Assembly: GCA_964544295.1 (NCBI GenBank)
Contig: CAZJBJ010000001.1
Span: 1 to 54,087 of the forward strand
Direction of reading: 5' to 3'
Length of the DNA: 54,087 nt
Source of the DNA: an uncultured Bifidobacteriaceae bacterium
GTDB lineage: Bacteria; Actinomycetota; Acidimicrobiia; IMCC26256; JAENVU01
In this document: in pieces, positions 41,943 through 47,177 of the stretch
Numbering within the stretch: the stretch's first letter is position 1
Layout of the letters: every line of letters begins with the position of its first letter
Made by a program: the position numbers and the translations under genes
Notes under the pieces: generated by a model
Databases searched by the model: none
The model's input: only the letters and a program-made list of their open reading frames with translations
Told to the model about the DNA's origin: nothing

Positions 41943-42785
41943 GTGACCGACGCGGTCCCGTTGGCCGAACGGTTGGGTCACCGACCGGACGATCGGTTGA
42001 TGATCATCAACTGCGACGACCTCGGGTCGTCGCGTGCCGCCAACGTGGCCGTGTACGAATCGCTCCGATCCGGCGTCGCGACCAGCGCGACGCTCATGGT
42101 TCCGTGCCCGTGGTCGCGCGACGCGGCCGCGATGTATCGGGGCGAGGACATCGGCGTCCACCTCACGTTGAACTCCGAGTGGAAGAACTACCGCTGGGGT
42201 CCGATCACCCGAGCGCCGAGCCTGCTCGACGGCGACGGTGGATTCCCCCGCACCATCGAGGACGTCTGGGACCATGCCGACCTCGACGAGGTCCGCAAGG
42301 AGTGCCGGGCCCAGATCGAACGGGCGATCCTCTGGGGCTTCGACGTGTCACACCTCGACAGCCACATGGGCACGTTGCAACTGCGCCCCGAGTTCTTCGA
42401 CGTCTATCTCGAACTGGCCGTGGAGTTCGCCCTCCCGCTCCGGCTCTCGGGCGCCAGCTCCGAACACCGCGTGGGGTTTCCGTTCCGTCGACTGGCCGCC
42501 GAGGAAGGCGTCGTGTTCACCGACCACATGGTCGACGTCCCGATCGGCGGTCGCCGAACCATCGAGCGGGTGCTGTTCGATCTCCGGCCCGGGATCACCG
42601 AGGTGTTCCTGCATCCGGCCGTCGACTCCGACGAGTTGCGCGCATCGCACCCGGACTGGGCCGGTCGGGTCGAGGATCACGCGACCTTGTGTCAGGACGC
42701 GGCGTTCGCCGACCTGCTGGACCGAGCGTCGGTCACCCTCATCGGCTACCGCGAGCTCCGAGACCTCCAACGCGCCAACCGGTGA
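41943..42785 (+). CDS. ChbG/HpnK (YdjC) family carbohydrate deacetylase
   Basis: LMIINCDDLGSS, TLMVPCP, GVHLTL and SHLDSHMG. Confidence 0.85.
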   Translation: MTDAVPLAERLGHRPDDRLMIINCDDLGSSRAANVAVYESLRSGVATSATLMVPCPWSRDAAAMYRGEDIGVHLTLNSEWKNYRWGPITRAPSLLDGDGGFPRTIEDVWDHADLDEVRKECRAQIERAILWGFDVSHLDSHMGTLQLRPEFFDVYLELAVEFALPLRLSGASSEHRVGFPFRRLAAEEGVVFTDHMVDVPIGGRRTIERVLFDLRPGITEVFLHPAVDSDELRASHPDWAGRVEDHATLCQDAAFADLLDRASVTLIGYRELRDLQRANR

Positions 42786-42798
42786 GCGCCGTCATCGG

Positions 42799-45333
42799 TC
42801 ACTGATGGTGACCGGCGTGATCCGTCGCCGCCATCGACGACGCGAACGGATCGTCGGTCCGATGTGCCCAGACGTGCAGCATCTCCGGTGACCGCAGCTC
42901 GGGACGGCCGCGGACACAGCTCCCGTCGGCAGCCGCGAGCTCGAGTGGAAATCCCCCCTGGATCATGCAGACCGGCGCACCGAAGACGTGGTAGTGCCAG
43001 GTCGTGTCCGGGCCACCCGGTTGCGGCCCCCGACGGTCCCCGTCCGCGAGGTACATCGCGCCGAGGAACCGCCGGGCTCCGGGGCCCGGTGAGTACATCA
43101 ACGCCTCGGGCGCACGCGGGTCGAGCGTTCGATGGTCCGTCACGGCGGCCGGGTTCACCCAGTGGGTCTCGTCGACCTGCACGAACCCCTCACGCCGGGC
43201 GACGGTGAGGTCCCGGAAGCGCCGACTGCGATCGAGGGTGTCCTGGACCAACTGTCGACCCACCGCCCGCTGACTCCCTGTGGTCGCCGTCGACGCCGGC
43301 CACTCCGAGACGCTGAACGCCTGCGCCTCGATGCGGCGGAGGTAGCGACCGTCCGGCGCGCGGCCGACGGCGGACACGGTTCCCGAATACGGCCCGATCG
43401 CCGCGGCCACGGCCCGGTAGGCGTCCTCGGCCGCCGCGCCGTGGAGCGATCGGTCGGCCACCGGTGACACCGTCGCGGCCGCGACGTGTCCGAGCACGAC
43501 CGGTGCCGCGGCGCGTAGTTCGGCCGCAGTGGCGGCCTGACGCTTCGAATCGCGTCGGGCGGGTGCGGGCCCGAGCGCGTCCACCACTGCCTGCGCGACA
43601 CATTCGCCCGCGTCCAGGCCCGCCGCGTTCGCCTTCGGAATATGGATACCGCCGTACTCCCGACTCTTGGCCGCTTGTCGCGCCGCGGCCATGAACGACG
43701 GGAACCGGCGCGGCCGGATCGAGAAGGACGCCCGGACATCGGAGCCGGTGCTGAATCCCTCGTCCCGGTAGGCCATCGGTCCGACGAGTTCGGTCAAGGT
43801 GCGGGCGGCGGCGCCGGACACGGTCGCGTGGCCGGACACCCAGTCCGGGAACGGGGGCGTGTTGAGGTACGGCGCCCAGTCGGGGTCGATCGACTCTCGG
43901 ATGACGGTCACCGGTCGGATCTGGTTCCATTGGTACTTCGATGCCCACGCGGTGATGAACGCGTCGCCCACCGCCGCGCCGACCGCCCCCTGCAGCCGCG
44001 CCGCGTCGCCGAGGGACAGGGCGCGGCGGTCGATCGCGATGTTCGCGGTGGCGACCCAGTGACCACCGGGAGTGCCGGTATGACCGCGATCGTCGTTCCA
44101 GAATCGAGCGATGGCGCGTTGATCCCGGGTGAGCGAACGTGACGTCTCGTAGACCGCACGCTCCTCGGTCATGAACTCCGAGCCCGGATCGGTCGAGTAC
44201 TCGGGTGGCGCCGGCGCGGCGCACTCCGAGGCGCCGCTCACGACGTAGGGCCGCAGATCGCCCCACCACGGCTCCTGGGCGGCCTGAAAGGTGGTGGGCG
44301 TGGGAACCCACCGCCCCGGACCGGTCGGTGCGACATACGGGCGGGTCCTCGTCTCCGCGAACCCGTCGCGGGCGGACCACTCGATCAGTCGTGTCGCCAC
44401 CCCCTGCCCGTAGCGCACCGACGCGCGGAAGCGACCGGTCGAGACGCGGTCGGCCGCCGCCGCCAGGGCATCGTCCCGGAACGCGGCGAACGCCGCCCGG
44501 GTGGACGGCACCTGCGACAGCGCGCGTGGCACGAGCGGTGCGCCCGAGGCGGCCACGGTGCGTTCGTCGACCTGCCGCGGCGCGGCCGGGATCGGTGCCA
44601 GGTCGCGCACCGGAAGGGCATTCGGCTGAACGGTCTCGAGCAGCGCGAGCCCCGACAGCGCGTACACCCGCGACGCGACCGGTGGGTTCAGCCGATCCCG
44701 CTGCACCAGCCGGATCACGAGTCGGGTCAGGTCCACGACGAGGCCCGGCGAGCCGGTGACCCGACGCGGCTCCGCGGATCGGTTCCCCGTCAACGGTCGC
44801 GCGCACGACGCGACCGTCCCGTCCGGCAACACGGTGTCGCACCGCCCGACCGCGGGCAGGTCTCGCAGGCGCATCCGCGCGTCCGTGAGATCCGCATCGG
44901 TCCAGAAACTGAGCCCGAAGCGGGCGGCGCGCAGGTCCGCCTGACCGAGCCGCGCCGCACTGAACCGCGCGCGGTCGAGGCGAGCGCGGCGGAGGTCCGC
45001 GCCCTCGAGCGCGCCGCTCGCCCAGCCGCTCCGTCGCAGATCCGCGCCGCGCAGATCCGTACGGGTCGCGTTCACCCGATCGAGACGCGCGCCGCGCAGG
45101 TCGACACCGCGCAGGTCGGATCGGGACAGATTCGCGCCTCGGAGATCCGAGTCGCGGAAGTCCCACCCGCGCAGATCTCGCCGTGACAGGTCGACGCCGA
45201 CGCAGTCGGTCGTCCGACCCCGTCGACACCGGTCGGCCGCGCCCGCCCGGTCGGCCCCGCCCGAGAGGGCGGTGAGGGCGATCGTCGCGACGACCAACCC
45301 GATCGGGACGACGCGACCGCGCTTCCGGATCAC
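42799..45333 (-). CDS. Exported fusion protein: pentapeptide repeats + vanadium-haloperoxidase/PAP2-like domain + unknown His-rich C-terminal domain
   Basis: GTG 45333 overlaps the upstream stop (GTGA). Anchor VVPIGLVVATIALTALSG. Pentapeptide run DLSRRDLRGWDFRDSDLRGANLSRSDLRGVDLRGARL.. PAP2/VHPO blocks KYQWNQIRP, PDWVSGHATVSG and SREYGGIHIPK. The C-terminal ~230 aa carry THWVN, WHYHVFG and LHVWAH and end in DHAGHHQ. Confidence 0.8.
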   Translation of the reverse strand: MIRKRGRVVPIGLVVATIALTALSGGADRAGAADRCRRGRTTDCVGVDLSRRDLRGWDFRDSDLRGANLSRSDLRGVDLRGARLDRVNATRTDLRGADLRRSGWASGALEGADLRRARLDRARFSAARLGQADLRAARFGLSFWTDADLTDARMRLRDLPAVGRCDTVLPDGTVASCARPLTGNRSAEPRRVTGSPGLVVDLTRLVIRLVQRDRLNPPVASRVYALSGLALLETVQPNALPVRDLAPIPAAPRQVDERTVAASGAPLVPRALSQVPSTRAAFAAFRDDALAAAADRVSTGRFRASVRYGQGVATRLIEWSARDGFAETRTRPYVAPTGPGRWVPTPTTFQAAQEPWWGDLRPYVVSGASECAAPAPPEYSTDPGSEFMTEERAVYETSRSLTRDQRAIARFWNDDRGHTGTPGGHWVATANIAIDRRALSLGDAARLQGAVGAAVGDAFITAWASKYQWNQIRPVTVIRESIDPDWAPYLNTPPFPDWVSGHATVSGAAARTLTELVGPMAYRDEGFSTGSDVRASFSIRPRRFPSFMAAARQAAKSREYGGIHIPKANAAGLDAGECVAQAVVDALGPAPARRDSKRQAATAAELRAAAPVVLGHVAAATVSPVADRSLHGAAAEDAYRAVAAAIGPYSGTVSAVGRAPDGRYLRRIEAQAFSVSEWPASTATTGSQRAVGRQLVQDTLDRSRRFRDLTVARREGFVQVDETHWVNPAAVTDHRTLDPRAPEALMYSPGPGARRFLGAMYLADGDRRGPQPGGPDTTWHYHVFGAPVCMIQGGFPLELAAADGSCVRGRPELRSPEMLHVWAHRTDDPFASSMAATDHAGHHQ

Positions 45334-47177
45334 GTGGGCTCCGTGATCACGAACGTTCGATCGGGCTTGACGTTCCGCATCGTCACCACCTTGCCGCTCG
45401 CGGGGAATCGCACCTGCACCCGGTCCACTCGCGCTCGCTGCGTTCCCAGACCGACCTGCACGGCCCGTTCGCTCTGACCGAGAAACGCGGTCCCGGTGCC
45501 GACTTCGATGACCGTCGACGGTCCGCGCCGCTTCGGGCGGACACTCACCACCGCTCCCAGTCCGTCCCGGTTCGACGACGTGCCCCGGACCTCGACGCGC
45601 AGATAGTGCGCCGGCCGACTGGTGTTCCGCAGCAGGACCGGGCGCGCACCGGGTTGCACCGCGATGACGTCGAGGCGACCGTCGCGGTTCTGGTCGAGCA
45701 CCGCGAGTCCGCGTGCGTTGATCACGTCGAACCCGGCAGGACCCGCGACCTGGGTGAACCCGTCCTTGCCGTCGTTGCGCCACAGGCGACTCCGACCGCC
45801 CGCGAACGGCTTGGCCAGGGGGATGTCAGGGAAGTCCACCCCGCTCACCTGCAGCAGGTCCCGCCGACCCCGGTTCATCGTGTCCACCATGGCCGTTCCC
45901 CAGCCCCACCCGCCGTTGCGAACCCCGGCGAGATCGGTGGCGTCGCGGAACGTGCGCTTCCCCAGTCCGAGAAACAGCCGATTGCCGCTCCCACCCCAGT
46001 TGCCGCCGTCGGTGAAGGAGGAGCCACGCGGATCGAAGATGGACGTCACCATGACGTCGGCGAGACCGTCACCGTTGACGTCGCCGACCGCCAGCCCCAT
46101 ACCGTTCTCCTCGGTTCCGAGCCCCGCGGCCTTGGTGCCCTCGGCGAAGGTCCCGTCGTGACGGTTCCAGAACAGATGACTCGTGCCGAAGTCTCCCGCG
46201 ACGAGCAGATCCTGCCAACCGTCCCGGTCGAGGTCGGCGAACGTCGCCCCGAAGGCGAAGACCGGATCGTTCGTCCGTTCGATCGCCACCCCCGCCGCGG
46301 TCGTGACGTCGTCGAAGTAGCCGGGTTGCGCTTCGCCGCGGTTGTGGAGGAGCCGGGCATCCGAGGCGGCGATCGGCGTCGCGCCGGACGCGCCCCGGTA
46401 CTCGGTGAAATACACGTCGACGAAACCGTCGCGGTCGTAGTCACCGACGGCGATCGAGTACCCGATGTGGATGTTGCCGTTCTCGAGCGCCGTCCCCCGA
46501 GCCTGCGCCGCTTCGGTGAACCGTCCCGAGCCCTCGTTCACGAACAGGTAGTAGCGATGCGACGCGATGGTGCTGACGAACAGGTCCTCGTCGCCGTCGT
46601 TGTCGATGTCGGCGAAGGCGGCACCGACCGACGCCTCGGGGAGCGCCTCGAGCCCGGAACCTGCCGTCGCATCATGGAAGCCATCGTCGTCGGCGAGCAT
46701 CAACCGGCCCGGGCCGTCGAGGCGGGGCACGTAGACGTCGACGAGTCCGTCCTGGTTCGCGTCGCCCACCGCCACGCCGCCCGTGAACCGCTCGAGCTGG
46801 CAGAGCGCGCCGTTCAACGCGTCGCCGACCGGCAGCGACACTCCCGGGAACTCGGCCCGGAGTTCGGGCTCGCTGAGCAGACAGCCCGGAGCACCACACA
46901 GGGGCGCCCGCGCGAACGTGAGACCCACCCGTCCGGACACGTCGCGGAACTTCGGGGTCCGACCCTTCACGCGACGCGGACCGATGGCCCGGGCCGACGG
47001 CGAAGCACGGTACTCGGGTCCGTCGCCGCAGGCCCCCGAGGGCGCCGCGACCTGATCCGCTCCCGGGTCCGCCGCGGCGCGGGGCGCGTCACCGAAGGCA
47101 CCCCCGCCGCCCAGGCCGACGATGGCGGCCACACCTACGCTGAGGATCGCGCCTGATCGCCCCCGACGAACGCTCAC
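45330..47177 (-). CDS. CRTAC1-type FG-GAP/VCBS repeat protein with ASPIC/UnbV C-terminal domain
   Basis: GTG 47177 (GTG 47213 alternative). Signal peptide. Ca-loop repeats GDANQDGLVDVYV, ADIDNDGDEDLFV, GDYDRDGFVDVYF, ADLDRDGWQDLLV and GDVNGDGLADVMV. UnbV-like NRDGLGAVVSV..GTAFLGQSE. Confidence 0.85.
   Translation of the reverse strand: MSVRRGRSGAILSVGVAAIVGLGGGGAFGDAPRAAADPGADQVAAPSGACGDGPEYRASPSARAIGPRRVKGRTPKFRDVSGRVGLTFARAPLCGAPGCLLSEPELRAEFPGVSLPVGDALNGALCQLERFTGGVAVGDANQDGLVDVYVPRLDGPGRLMLADDDGFHDATAGSGLEALPEASVGAAFADIDNDGDEDLFVSTIASHRYYLFVNEGSGRFTEAAQARGTALENGNIHIGYSIAVGDYDRDGFVDVYFTEYRGASGATPIAASDARLLHNRGEAQPGYFDDVTTAAGVAIERTNDPVFAFGATFADLDRDGWQDLLVAGDFGTSHLFWNRHDGTFAEGTKAAGLGTEENGMGLAVGDVNGDGLADVMVTSIFDPRGSSFTDGGNWGGSGNRLFLGLGKRTFRDATDLAGVRNGGWGWGTAMVDTMNRGRRDLLQVSGVDFPDIPLAKPFAGGRSRLWRNDGKDGFTQVAGPAGFDVINARGLAVLDQNRDGRLDVIAVQPGARPVLLRNTSRPAHYLRVEVRGTSSNRDGLGAVVSVRPKRRGPSTVIEVGTGTAFLGQSERAVQVGLGTQRARVDRVQVRFPASGKVVTMRNVKPDRTFVITEPT

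Follow-up and report, generated by a model that had tools for sequence, protein, structure and literature searches.

A candidate cell-envelope cassette pairing a CRTAC1-like propeller with a predicted exported vanadium haloperoxidase fusion protein

The DNA analyzed here is a stretch of 54,087 nucleotides from an uncultured bacterium of the Acidimicrobiia (contig CAZJBJ010000001.1), referred to below as the window, with a G+C content of about 70%. Two overlapping genes on its minus strand are the subject of this work. Gene 1 (45330..47177) encodes a CRTAC1-like beta-propeller protein of 615 residues with FG-GAP and UnbV_ASPIC domains, identified by Pfam and by a weak match to 9ETN, and gene 2 (42799..45333) encodes an 844-residue fusion of a signal peptide or membrane anchor, a pentapeptide-repeat solenoid, a vanadium haloperoxidase (VHPO) domain, a linker and a His/Met/Cys domain. 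The overall explanation that we favor, and on balance consider probable, is that the pair constitutes a small cell-envelope cassette, made up of an exported VHPO fusion and a translationally coupled propeller, that stands apart from the lipid and mycothiol genes upstream. Membership of the central domain in the VHPO structural family is well supported, with catalysis as a prediction, because the domain matches the iodoperoxidase 4CIT over its full length, carries identical vanadate-binding residues and retrieves only VHPOs as its top fold matches. An earlier note, written from the DNA letters, had proposed four parts for the 844-residue protein, and Pfam, matches to PDB sequences and motif positions agree on this architecture.

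The central domain of gene 2 groups with vanadium haloperoxidases

Residues 198-587 of the gene 2 protein (43573..44742, minus strand) were identified as a VHPO-like catalytic domain by phmmer and by Foldseek comparison with 4CIT. When PDB sequences were searched with phmmer, this segment matched the Zobellia galactanivorans iodoperoxidase (4CIT/4USZ) end to end (E=1.8e-57), with 37.6% identity to 4CIT over 380 aligned positions. The three signature blocks singled out in the earlier note were located at K466-P474 (KYQWNQIRP, 43912..43938, with K466, R473 and P474, and W463 just upstream), at S500-G501-H502 (43828..43836) and at R558-x5-H564 (43642..43662, H564 being the presumed vanadate ligand); all three lie on the minus strand, are invariant in the alignment and are identical to 4CIT. 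In total, K466, R473, S500, G501, H502, R558 and H564, plus W463, F495 and H425, were identical to their 4CIT counterparts, and the same ten residues were invariant among 14 homologues. Residue roles were assigned from identity to the 4CIT sequence; the positions of W463 and F495 are ones that line the halide pocket in chloroperoxidases.

Structural comparison gave a similar picture. An AlphaFold2 (AF2) model of residues 1-600, with a predicted local distance difference test score (pLDDT) of 85.1 and a predicted template modeling score (pTM) of 0.86, matched 4CIT in Foldseek with E=1.3e-27 and a target-normalized template modeling score (TM) of 0.84. The top 17 PDB matches were all VHPOs (4CIT, XhnO11, NapH3, NapH1 and Curvularia chloroperoxidase), and the acid phosphatases 7F17 and 7F18 appeared far lower in the fold list, aligned over only about 230 core columns with E-values of about 1e-5. 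The three PAP2 acid phosphatase signature motifs are present in the central domain, and Pfam PAP2 was recognized at residues 460-584 with 29.6 bits against a cut-off of 27.2. The compact single-core architecture typical of class A phosphatases (about 200-250 residues) is not, however, what was found: the domain spans 390 residues and has an extra N-terminal bundle, corresponding to PF22778 (VCPO_2nd), which was detected in homologues. The description of this domain as PAP2/haloperoxidase-like in the earlier note was thus correct as to its signature, but "PAP2-like" is too weak for a full two-bundle VHPO whose nearest match is a proven iodoperoxidase.

The Zobellia enzyme Zg-VIPO1 (4CIT/4USZ) resembles the window enzyme along the full length of the catalytic domain, with identical vanadate residues and identical nearby Trp and Phe. 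It differs in being a single domain of about 450 residues, whereas the window protein is actinobacterial and adds the pentapeptide solenoid and the His/Met/Cys domain. Streptomyces NapH1 (3W36) and NapH3 (8CXL) and the Curvularia chloroperoxidase (1VNC) have the same two-bundle fold and vanadate site but only 15-18% identity to the window protein. The Streptomyces VHPOs belong to cytoplasmic biosynthetic clusters and the Curvularia enzyme is fungal and secreted; we know of no pentapeptide, His/Met domain or ASPIC partner in NapH1, NapH3 or the Curvularia enzyme.

Gene 1 overlaps gene 2 and encodes a propeller found beside VHPO-like genes across phyla

The stop codon of gene 1 and the GTG start of gene 2 overlap as GTGA (45330..45333, minus strand), as read directly in the sequence both here and in the earlier note, and a Shine-Dalgarno-like GGAG lies 5 nucleotides upstream of the GTG at 45333. 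This 4-nucleotide overlap was kept in all four relatives in which both genes are called (loci L001, L003, L004 and L005), in support of the translational coupling of the fusion to a CRTAC1-like propeller. The open reading frame (ORF) of gene 2 starts at GTG 45333, ends with the stop at 42799 and has 844 codons. An upstream-extended ORF of 994 residues was considered as gene 2 and rejected because, in the alignment, homologues begin at the residue equivalent to GTG 45333. For gene 1 the candidate starts are GTG 47177, which gives the 615 codons used here, and GTG 47213. The propeller and the pentapeptide-VHPO part each had a ratio of nonsynonymous to synonymous substitution rates (dN/dS) of 0.14 between the window and L003, and the C-terminal domain had a ratio of 0.26; all three parts are therefore under purifying selection.

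The gene 1 protein matched the Pfam families FG-GAP_3 (5.8e-38), FG-GAP (1e-12) and UnbV_ASPIC (5.9e-10), the last of these (PF07593) being the C-terminal domain at residues 539-608 (45354..45563, minus strand). FG-GAP repeats followed by a C-terminal UnbV_ASPIC domain are the features that define the CRTAC1/ASPIC family, whose members, human CRTAC1 (9ETN) and the bacterial UnbV_ASPIC proteins, share this order and are secreted. Sequence similarity to human CRTAC1 was nevertheless weak (2.8e-8 over about 130 residues). We know of no function for human CRTAC1 or for the bacterial UnbV_ASPIC proteins.

The distribution of the cassette was examined by scanning one genome per species across 185,579 species. 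The pentapeptide-VHPO combination was rare, with one close relative in the scan, a metagenome-assembled genome (MAG) of the Acidimicrobiia; VHPO-only homologues numbered in the hundreds and were found in Bacteroidota, Gemmatimonadota, Planctomycetota, Chloroflexota and others. An FG-GAP/ASPIC gene lay within 6 kb of the VHPO-like gene in 44 of the 79 distant loci fetched, on the same strand in 43 of those 44. Where at least 5 kb of flanking sequence was available on both sides, the neighbor was present in 35 of 49 loci (71%), so that the adjacency whose conservation the earlier note had suggested surveying extends across phyla. As a rough comparison, from different genomes, an FG-GAP match was found in 6 of 80 unrelated metagenomic loci, and most of these were the same cassette. 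The VHPO-like gene of Gillisia limnaea is directly preceded by two ASPIC genes. The arrangement also occurs with VHPOs 64-72% identical to Zg-VIPO1 in Dokdonia (L030), Gillisia (L031), Salegentibacter (L069, L079 and L084) and a member of the Flavobacteriaceae (L083); judged by sequence, these six enzymes are likely orthologues of Zg-VIPO1. A distant pentapeptide-VHPO gene (L005, 38% identity) overlaps its FG-GAP gene by 4 nucleotides.

Among close relatives, the propeller and the C-terminal domain were kept or lost together. All three components are present in the window, where the C-terminal domain is fused; in L003, which has a fusion-type junction; and in L004 and L001, where the C-terminal domain is encoded by a separate gene. 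In L002 the pentapeptide-VHPO is present, the propeller is absent and only out-of-frame remnants of the C-terminal domain are left, and in L089 the pentapeptide-VHPO is present and both of the others are absent.

The 844-residue protein derives from two adjacent genes

The nearest database relatives of the whole gene 2 protein covered 65-71% of its length, and the last 253 residues, searched alone, retrieved stand-alone proteins of 197-409 residues (P0121-P0138). L001 (GCA_046597715.1) carries three genes, encoding an FG-GAP/ASPIC protein of 595 residues, a pentapeptide-VHPO of 586 residues and a third protein of 285 residues, with a 4-nucleotide overlap at each junction. At the junction between the VHPO gene and the third gene an ATGA overlap precedes the lipobox ...VIGAC, and the third protein starts with MTTRRARSIVGAAIVAMAAIVIGAC, a lipoprotein signal. 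The third gene is also separate in L004, with the lipobox ...LAIVSC; part of its interior is deleted there and its stop codon is lost. At the corresponding position in the window is a linker of low pLDDT, residues 588-620 (43474..43572, minus strand), which takes the place of the stop codon and lipoprotein signal of the relatives; past this short linker the chain continues from the VHPO domain into the mature portion of the third protein, and no lipoprotein signal was found at the window junction in any of the three frames.

The same junction was seen elsewhere. P0286, which comes from an independent assembly of short reads, joins VHPO and C-terminal domain in frame, is 70% identical to the window protein over residues 223-844 and is organized at the junction as in the window; the closest relative, P0001 (83% identity), continues into this linker up to the end of its contig. 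The long-read contig of the Acidimicrobiia MAG (L003/L006) has a fusion-type junction in which a G-run carries a frame shift of one base. This frame shift we attribute to assembly error because of the G-run and because broken genes abound, with neighbors split or merged, on the sister contig L089, an indel-rich long-read contig of that metagenome. An 850-residue "protein" on that contig (P0009, L089:6001-8553), with PIG-L, SCP2 and pentapeptide matches, is a gene-calling artefact, and it shows that frame errors occur on contigs of this metagenome, L003 among them.

These comparisons show that the cassette ancestrally comprised three genes, for a propeller, a pentapeptide-VHPO and a His/Met/Cys lipoprotein. 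In the lineage of the window the third gene has lost its signal peptide and been joined in frame to the second, and to judge by its recurrence the fusion is real and common to at least two lineages. The four parts listed in the earlier note stand, but their union in one chain is a lineage-specific joining of two genes, the His-rich part being a separate lipoprotein in L001 and L004.

The C-terminal domain belongs to a large family with an apparently new fold

The His/Met/Cys domain occupies residues 621-838 of the gene 2 protein (42820..43473, minus strand), as delimited by its stand-alone homologues P0121-P0138 and by AF2 modeling. The repeated His motifs that the earlier note had quoted from about 230 unassigned C-terminal residues were found as given, at residues 723-727, 779-785, 817-822 and 838-844. 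The last of them, the tail DHAGHHQ (42802..42822, minus strand), occurs in the alignment in close relatives only, with HAGNHE, MPGHDH or nothing in its place elsewhere in the family. When 1.84 billion cluster representatives (50% identity) were searched with a profile, 3,709 matched with E<=1e-3, and 792 reached E<=1e-30. Of 160 family domains, at least 99% retained each of ten residues, G716, H724, W779, H780, H782, C789, C806, M818, H820 and W822, and this core (G, H, W-H-x-H, C...C and M-x-H-x-W) is fully present in the window domain.

The profile searches suggested in the earlier note recovered Pentapeptide, PAP2, FG-GAP and UnbV_ASPIC but left the C-terminal part unmatched: Pfam and NCBIfam searches with the C-terminal 253 and 133 residues and with 19 family members gave only chance matches to His-rich linkers, and a profile search of the PDB with the domain gave no sequence match. 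The structure prediction and fold search that had also been suggested yielded a confident AF2 model (pLDDT 83.6, pTM 0.82) but no PDB match in Foldseek (best E 2.3, TM about 0.1), and on the basis of this model the fold is apparently new. A cupin identity, raised by the resemblance of G-x5-H-x-H to cupin motif 1, was rejected because no cupin was among the fold matches. Both W-H-x-H and M-x-H-x-W lie on beta strands in the model; therefore H780 and H782 should point to a common side of one strand, and M818 and H820 to a common side of the other. With H724, these residues suggest a metal site of mononuclear type that a C789-C806 disulfide would stabilize. In combining a probably exported, beta-rich small domain with invariant His and Met residues near Trp, the domain recalls CusF, CopC and PCuAC, and its relatives have His-rich tails or linkers like those of periplasmic copper-binding proteins. 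The likeness is a functional analogy only, as the domain has no sequence or fold similarity to solved structures.

Most listed family members have predicted N-terminal transmembrane segments (1-6, most commonly 3-5), a lipobox-like motif was present in 17 of 147 members, 17 family representatives contain two copies of the domain, and several aligned homologues have His-rich linkers. In many members, among them P0128, P0129, P0131, P0133 and P0138, 3-5 N-terminal transmembrane helices with conserved His (GAGAIHFA...P.H...) and long His/Asp/Glu-rich linkers precede the conserved domain. FG-GAP/ASPIC genes lie upstream of genes of this family at three loci that have no VHPO gene (L092, L094 and L095). 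At L092:16-2051 the FG-GAP/ASPIC gene, whose product is 51% identical to that of the window, directly adjoins the family gene. At L095:1479-5652 (and also at L094:978-6031) a polytopic membrane protein is encoded between an FG-GAP/ASPIC protein of 623 residues and a lipoprotein of the C-terminal family; the membrane protein, which has a soluble C-terminal part, gave no Pfam match and contains FLGFMITDPRTVP, a segment that resembles NqrB/RnfD-type motifs. A DUF3738 protein is encoded upstream on the same strand of distant family members at L097:1455-2900, at L115:635-1423 and at about 5 other metagenomic loci.

Both proteins are probably exported, and the solenoid has exported precedents

Residues 1-33 of the gene 2 protein (45235..45333, minus strand) were assigned by hydropathy as a signal peptide or membrane anchor, consisting of RKRGR, then VVPIGLVVATIALTALSGG, then AGA|AD. 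They form the only part of the protein with a Kyte-Doolittle hydropathy above 1.6, as the N-terminal anchor described in the earlier note would imply, and have pLDDT below 50 in the AF2 model. In each of the two proteins just one segment is strongly hydrophobic, and it lies at the N terminus, preceded by Arg/Lys; that of the gene 1 protein, which has 4 Cys, spans residues 9-29. Lipoboxes occur at the position of the gene 2 N terminus in homologues P0004, P0005, P0014 and P0015 and also in stand-alone homologues of the C-terminal domain, and no Tat motif was apparent in the N-terminal signals. The eight cysteines of the gene 2 protein fall into four sequential pairs (36/44, 165/177, 371/578 and 789/806), in columns conserved among aligned homologues. 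Because of the single N-terminal hydrophobic segments, the paired cysteines and the lipobox-bearing homologues, both proteins are probably extracytoplasmic, in agreement with the location that had been suggested.

The solenoid comprises 22 contiguous pentapeptide repeats at residues 45-154 (44872..45201, minus strand), assigned from Pfam, repeat register and AF2. The Pfam Pentapeptide match starts at residue 43 (E=1e-19), and a single unbroken register of 22-23 repeats runs over residues 45-159, well above the 8 contiguous repeats that characterize a pentapeptide-repeat protein and in accord with the roughly 110 residues originally noted. Cys36/Cys44 and Cys165/Cys177 bracket the repeats. In the AF2 model the solenoid has pLDDT values of 91-98 and a strand every 5 residues, and its Foldseek matches are the Rfr-fold proteins Rfr32, HetL, Np275/276 and Qnr; the model thus predicts a beta-helix that is quadrilateral and right-handed (Rfr fold). 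The NCBIfam Qnr and MfpA equivalog models were matched at 18-23 bits, far below their cut-offs of 240-500 bits.

The premise of the earlier note that characterized pentapeptide proteins such as MfpA and Qnr are cytoplasmic was too narrow. Rfr32 and At2g44920 are pentapeptide proteins with signal peptides and disulfide caps that are predicted to be lumenal (PMC8145042), and export of a solenoid is therefore not unprecedented. Rfr32 (2F3L) and At2g44920 (3N90) have Rfr solenoids of about 5 coils after a signal peptide, with ends stabilized by disulfides, an organization that is probable for the window solenoid also; they are, however, stand-alone proteins of unknown function, whereas the window solenoid is the N-terminal module of an enzyme. 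The glucose/sorbosone dehydrogenase propeller PF07995 was found in other long pentapeptide-repeat proteins (P0020, P0027, P0048 and P0084), and the joining of pentapeptide solenoids to other enzyme domains is therefore not unique to this locus.

Proposed mechanism and alternative explanations

In the mechanism that we propose for the cassette, both proteins would leave the cytoplasm by the Sec route and their paired cysteines would form disulfides. The VHPO domain would bind vanadate through H564 and hold the oxyanion with K466, R473, S500, G501 and R558, while H502 would serve as acid/base; near the membrane, the domain would use H2O2 to oxidize halide to a hypohalous species outside the cell. 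Going by the closest characterized relative, the halide would most likely be iodide or bromide, and the purpose could be peroxide/halide detoxification or oxidative modification of the envelope or of an external substrate. The solenoid, with about 5.5 coils, may be a rigid spacer or an oligomerization module between the membrane-proximal N terminus and the enzyme. The C-terminal domain, formerly a lipoprotein partner, would be a metal-binding accessory with four invariant His and one Met on neighboring predicted strands and one predicted disulfide; its site would most plausibly be of copper type and assist the redox chemistry, for instance by supplying peroxide or by handling metal. The propeller may be a conserved binding or scaffolding partner. 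In order of support, the exported VHPO stands ahead of the solenoid spacer, followed by the metal-binding accessory and the propeller scaffold, both of which are weakly inferred.

Several observations weigh against parts of this proposal. Two loops near the 4CIT active site (...NPYVSVT... and ...FATKKI...) are deleted in the window protein, and because they are absent halide preference cannot be inferred from the comparison with 4CIT. PAP2 phosphatases are defined by the same vanadate-binding residues; apo-VHPOs can dephosphorylate, and 3BB0, a phosphate-trapped apo-chloroperoxidase, is among the fold matches; and NapH3, another fold match, catalyzes a rearrangement, so that a VHPO fold is not always that of a halogenase. 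The signal peptide was called from hydropathy and homologue lipoboxes. The clustering of the invariant His and Met residues was deduced from strand positions in a model of a domain that has no detectable relative of known function. The gene contexts of the stand-alone family members P0128 and P0133 were uninformative, and clustering of neighbors at 80 metagenomic loci gave only FG-GAP/ASPIC (few), DUF3738 (about 7) and a cluster of unannotated downstream ORFs. In addition, L002, L088 and L089 retain the pentapeptide-VHPO without the propeller, which is therefore dispensable in some lineages.

The most serious alternative, which we consider possible although not likely, is that in vivo the central domain is an exported PAP2-type phosphatase or a non-halogenating VHPO-like enzyme of the NapH3 kind, with accessory domains that bind its substrate. 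The three motifs are common to PAP2 phosphatases, the Pfam PAP2 score exceeds its cut-off, 7F17 and 7F18 are significant fold matches, and NapH3 and 3BB0 show that other chemistry is compatible with the fold. Few bacterial VHPO-like proteins have been assayed, and in Arenibacter five homologues of Zg-VIPO bear no annotation beyond PAP2 (PMC5064120). Both helical bundles are nevertheless homologous over their full length to a proven iodoperoxidase, W463 and F495 are identical to their counterparts in 4CIT, and the small acid phosphatases align only to the core of about 230 residues with E-values some 22 orders of magnitude weaker, all of which argues for a haloperoxidase.

Readings that deny the fusion a joint function outside the cytoplasm fared less well. 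The cassette might be decaying, with the fusion a neutral step toward pseudogenization: L002 has no FG-GAP gene and only C-terminal remnants, L089 lacks both parts, L088 lacks the FG-GAP gene, and the third gene of L004 has its internal deletion and lost stop codon. We regard this as improbable, given dN/dS values of 0.14-0.26 for all three parts relative to L003, the intact catalytic and family-invariant residues, and the retained overlap and GGAG. A sequencing or assembly indel could instead have joined adjacent genes into an artificial 844-residue protein, the His-rich protein being made separately, as might be supposed from its separate gene in L001 and L004 and from the different frames in L003. 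The fusion is very unlikely to be such an error because a single indel cannot delete a lipoprotein signal of about 25 residues, none of which survives in any junction frame, and because P0286, from an independent assembly, is likewise fused in frame; P0001 reads into the same linker, and the frame shift of L003 falls at a G-run in a long-read metagenome with broken genes such as those of L089. That the pentapeptide region is a cytoplasmic DNA mimic of the MfpA/Qnr type in a protein that is not exported seems to us barely credible: NCBIfam Qnr and MfpA do match, but at the very low scores given above, and the N-terminal hydrophobic signal, the Cys pairs flanking the solenoid, the lipobox homologues and the existence of exported disulfide-capped proteins (PMC8145042) all point away from it.

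Every Pfam-recognized domain of the pair is from a known family, and the cassette is not categorically new. In the literature searched, we found no description of the pentapeptide-VHPO fusion, of its further fusion to the C-terminal domain, of the three-gene cassette or of an ASPIC/VHPO operon across phyla, which bears out the remark in the earlier note that the architecture was not one known to be described; nor did that literature contain a paper connecting VHPOs with ASPIC, CRTAC1 or FG-GAP proteins or with pentapeptide repeats. To our knowledge, what bacterial vanadium haloperoxidases do physiologically is largely an open matter, and partner proteins have not been described for them. In organisms ranging from Acidimicrobiia to Bacteroidota and Gemmatimonadota, a CRTAC1-like propeller is the usual operon neighbor of enzymes of this clade, among them likely orthologues of the single bacterial iodoperoxidase that is proven, and so offers a testable lead both on how VHPOs work in the envelope and on the role of ASPIC/CRTAC1 proteins. 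The gene fusion is evidence of the Rosetta-stone type that the His/Met/Cys family works with the enzyme, and the enzyme to which the pentapeptide solenoid is joined here has a chemistry that can be predicted. We regard the genomic associations as solid; they allow the functions of VHPOs, ASPIC/CRTAC1 propellers and the new family to be tested together; the mechanism of the accessory parts is speculative.

A broader reading, to which we give little credence at present, is that ASPIC propellers and VHPO-like enzymes constitute an unrecognized extracytoplasmic halide/peroxide redox system across phyla, to which the Acidimicrobiia recruited a metalloprotein of new fold that would supply or control oxidant or cofactor. 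One possibility within this reading is a copper-dependent oxidase that feeds H2O2 to the haloperoxidase. If true, it would provide the first functional handle on CRTAC1/ASPIC and on an unannotated family of more than 3,700 clusters.

Genomic surroundings

The genes upstream of the pair encode an acyl-CoA dehydrogenase, a cyclase, a PIG-L/Mca protein and SCP2; on the other side, and convergent, are genes for YdjC, thiolase, alcohol dehydrogenase (ADH) and WS/DGAT. This set of neighbors is syntenic in L002, L003 and L004, and the cassettes of L001 and L005 lie in unrelated neighborhoods. Because of this difference, and because L002, L088 and L089 have the same position without a propeller, the link of the cassette to the upstream mycothiol and lipid genes is positional and not functional. 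The co-directional string at whose end the earlier note had placed the pair (acyl-CoA dehydrogenase, cyclase, mca and SCP2) is as listed there, but provides positional context only.

Only 13 nucleotides separate the YdjC-like gene, which ends at 42785 on the plus strand, from the convergent fusion gene, whose stop on the minus strand is at 42799; no terminator-like hairpin was seen in window:42785-42799, and a promoter and terminator scan gave nothing above chance. An ORF of 1,619 residues on the plus strand (window:47122-51981), antisense to SCP2, mca, the cyclase and the acyl-CoA dehydrogenase, was rejected as a by-product of the 70% G+C content, as were several antisense ORFs overlapping genes 1 and 2, taken as non-genes of this GC-rich region. 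In L002, about 7 kb upstream of the cassette position, are genes for a multicopper oxidase (L002:1324-2727) and a P-type ATPase (L002:1-1334).

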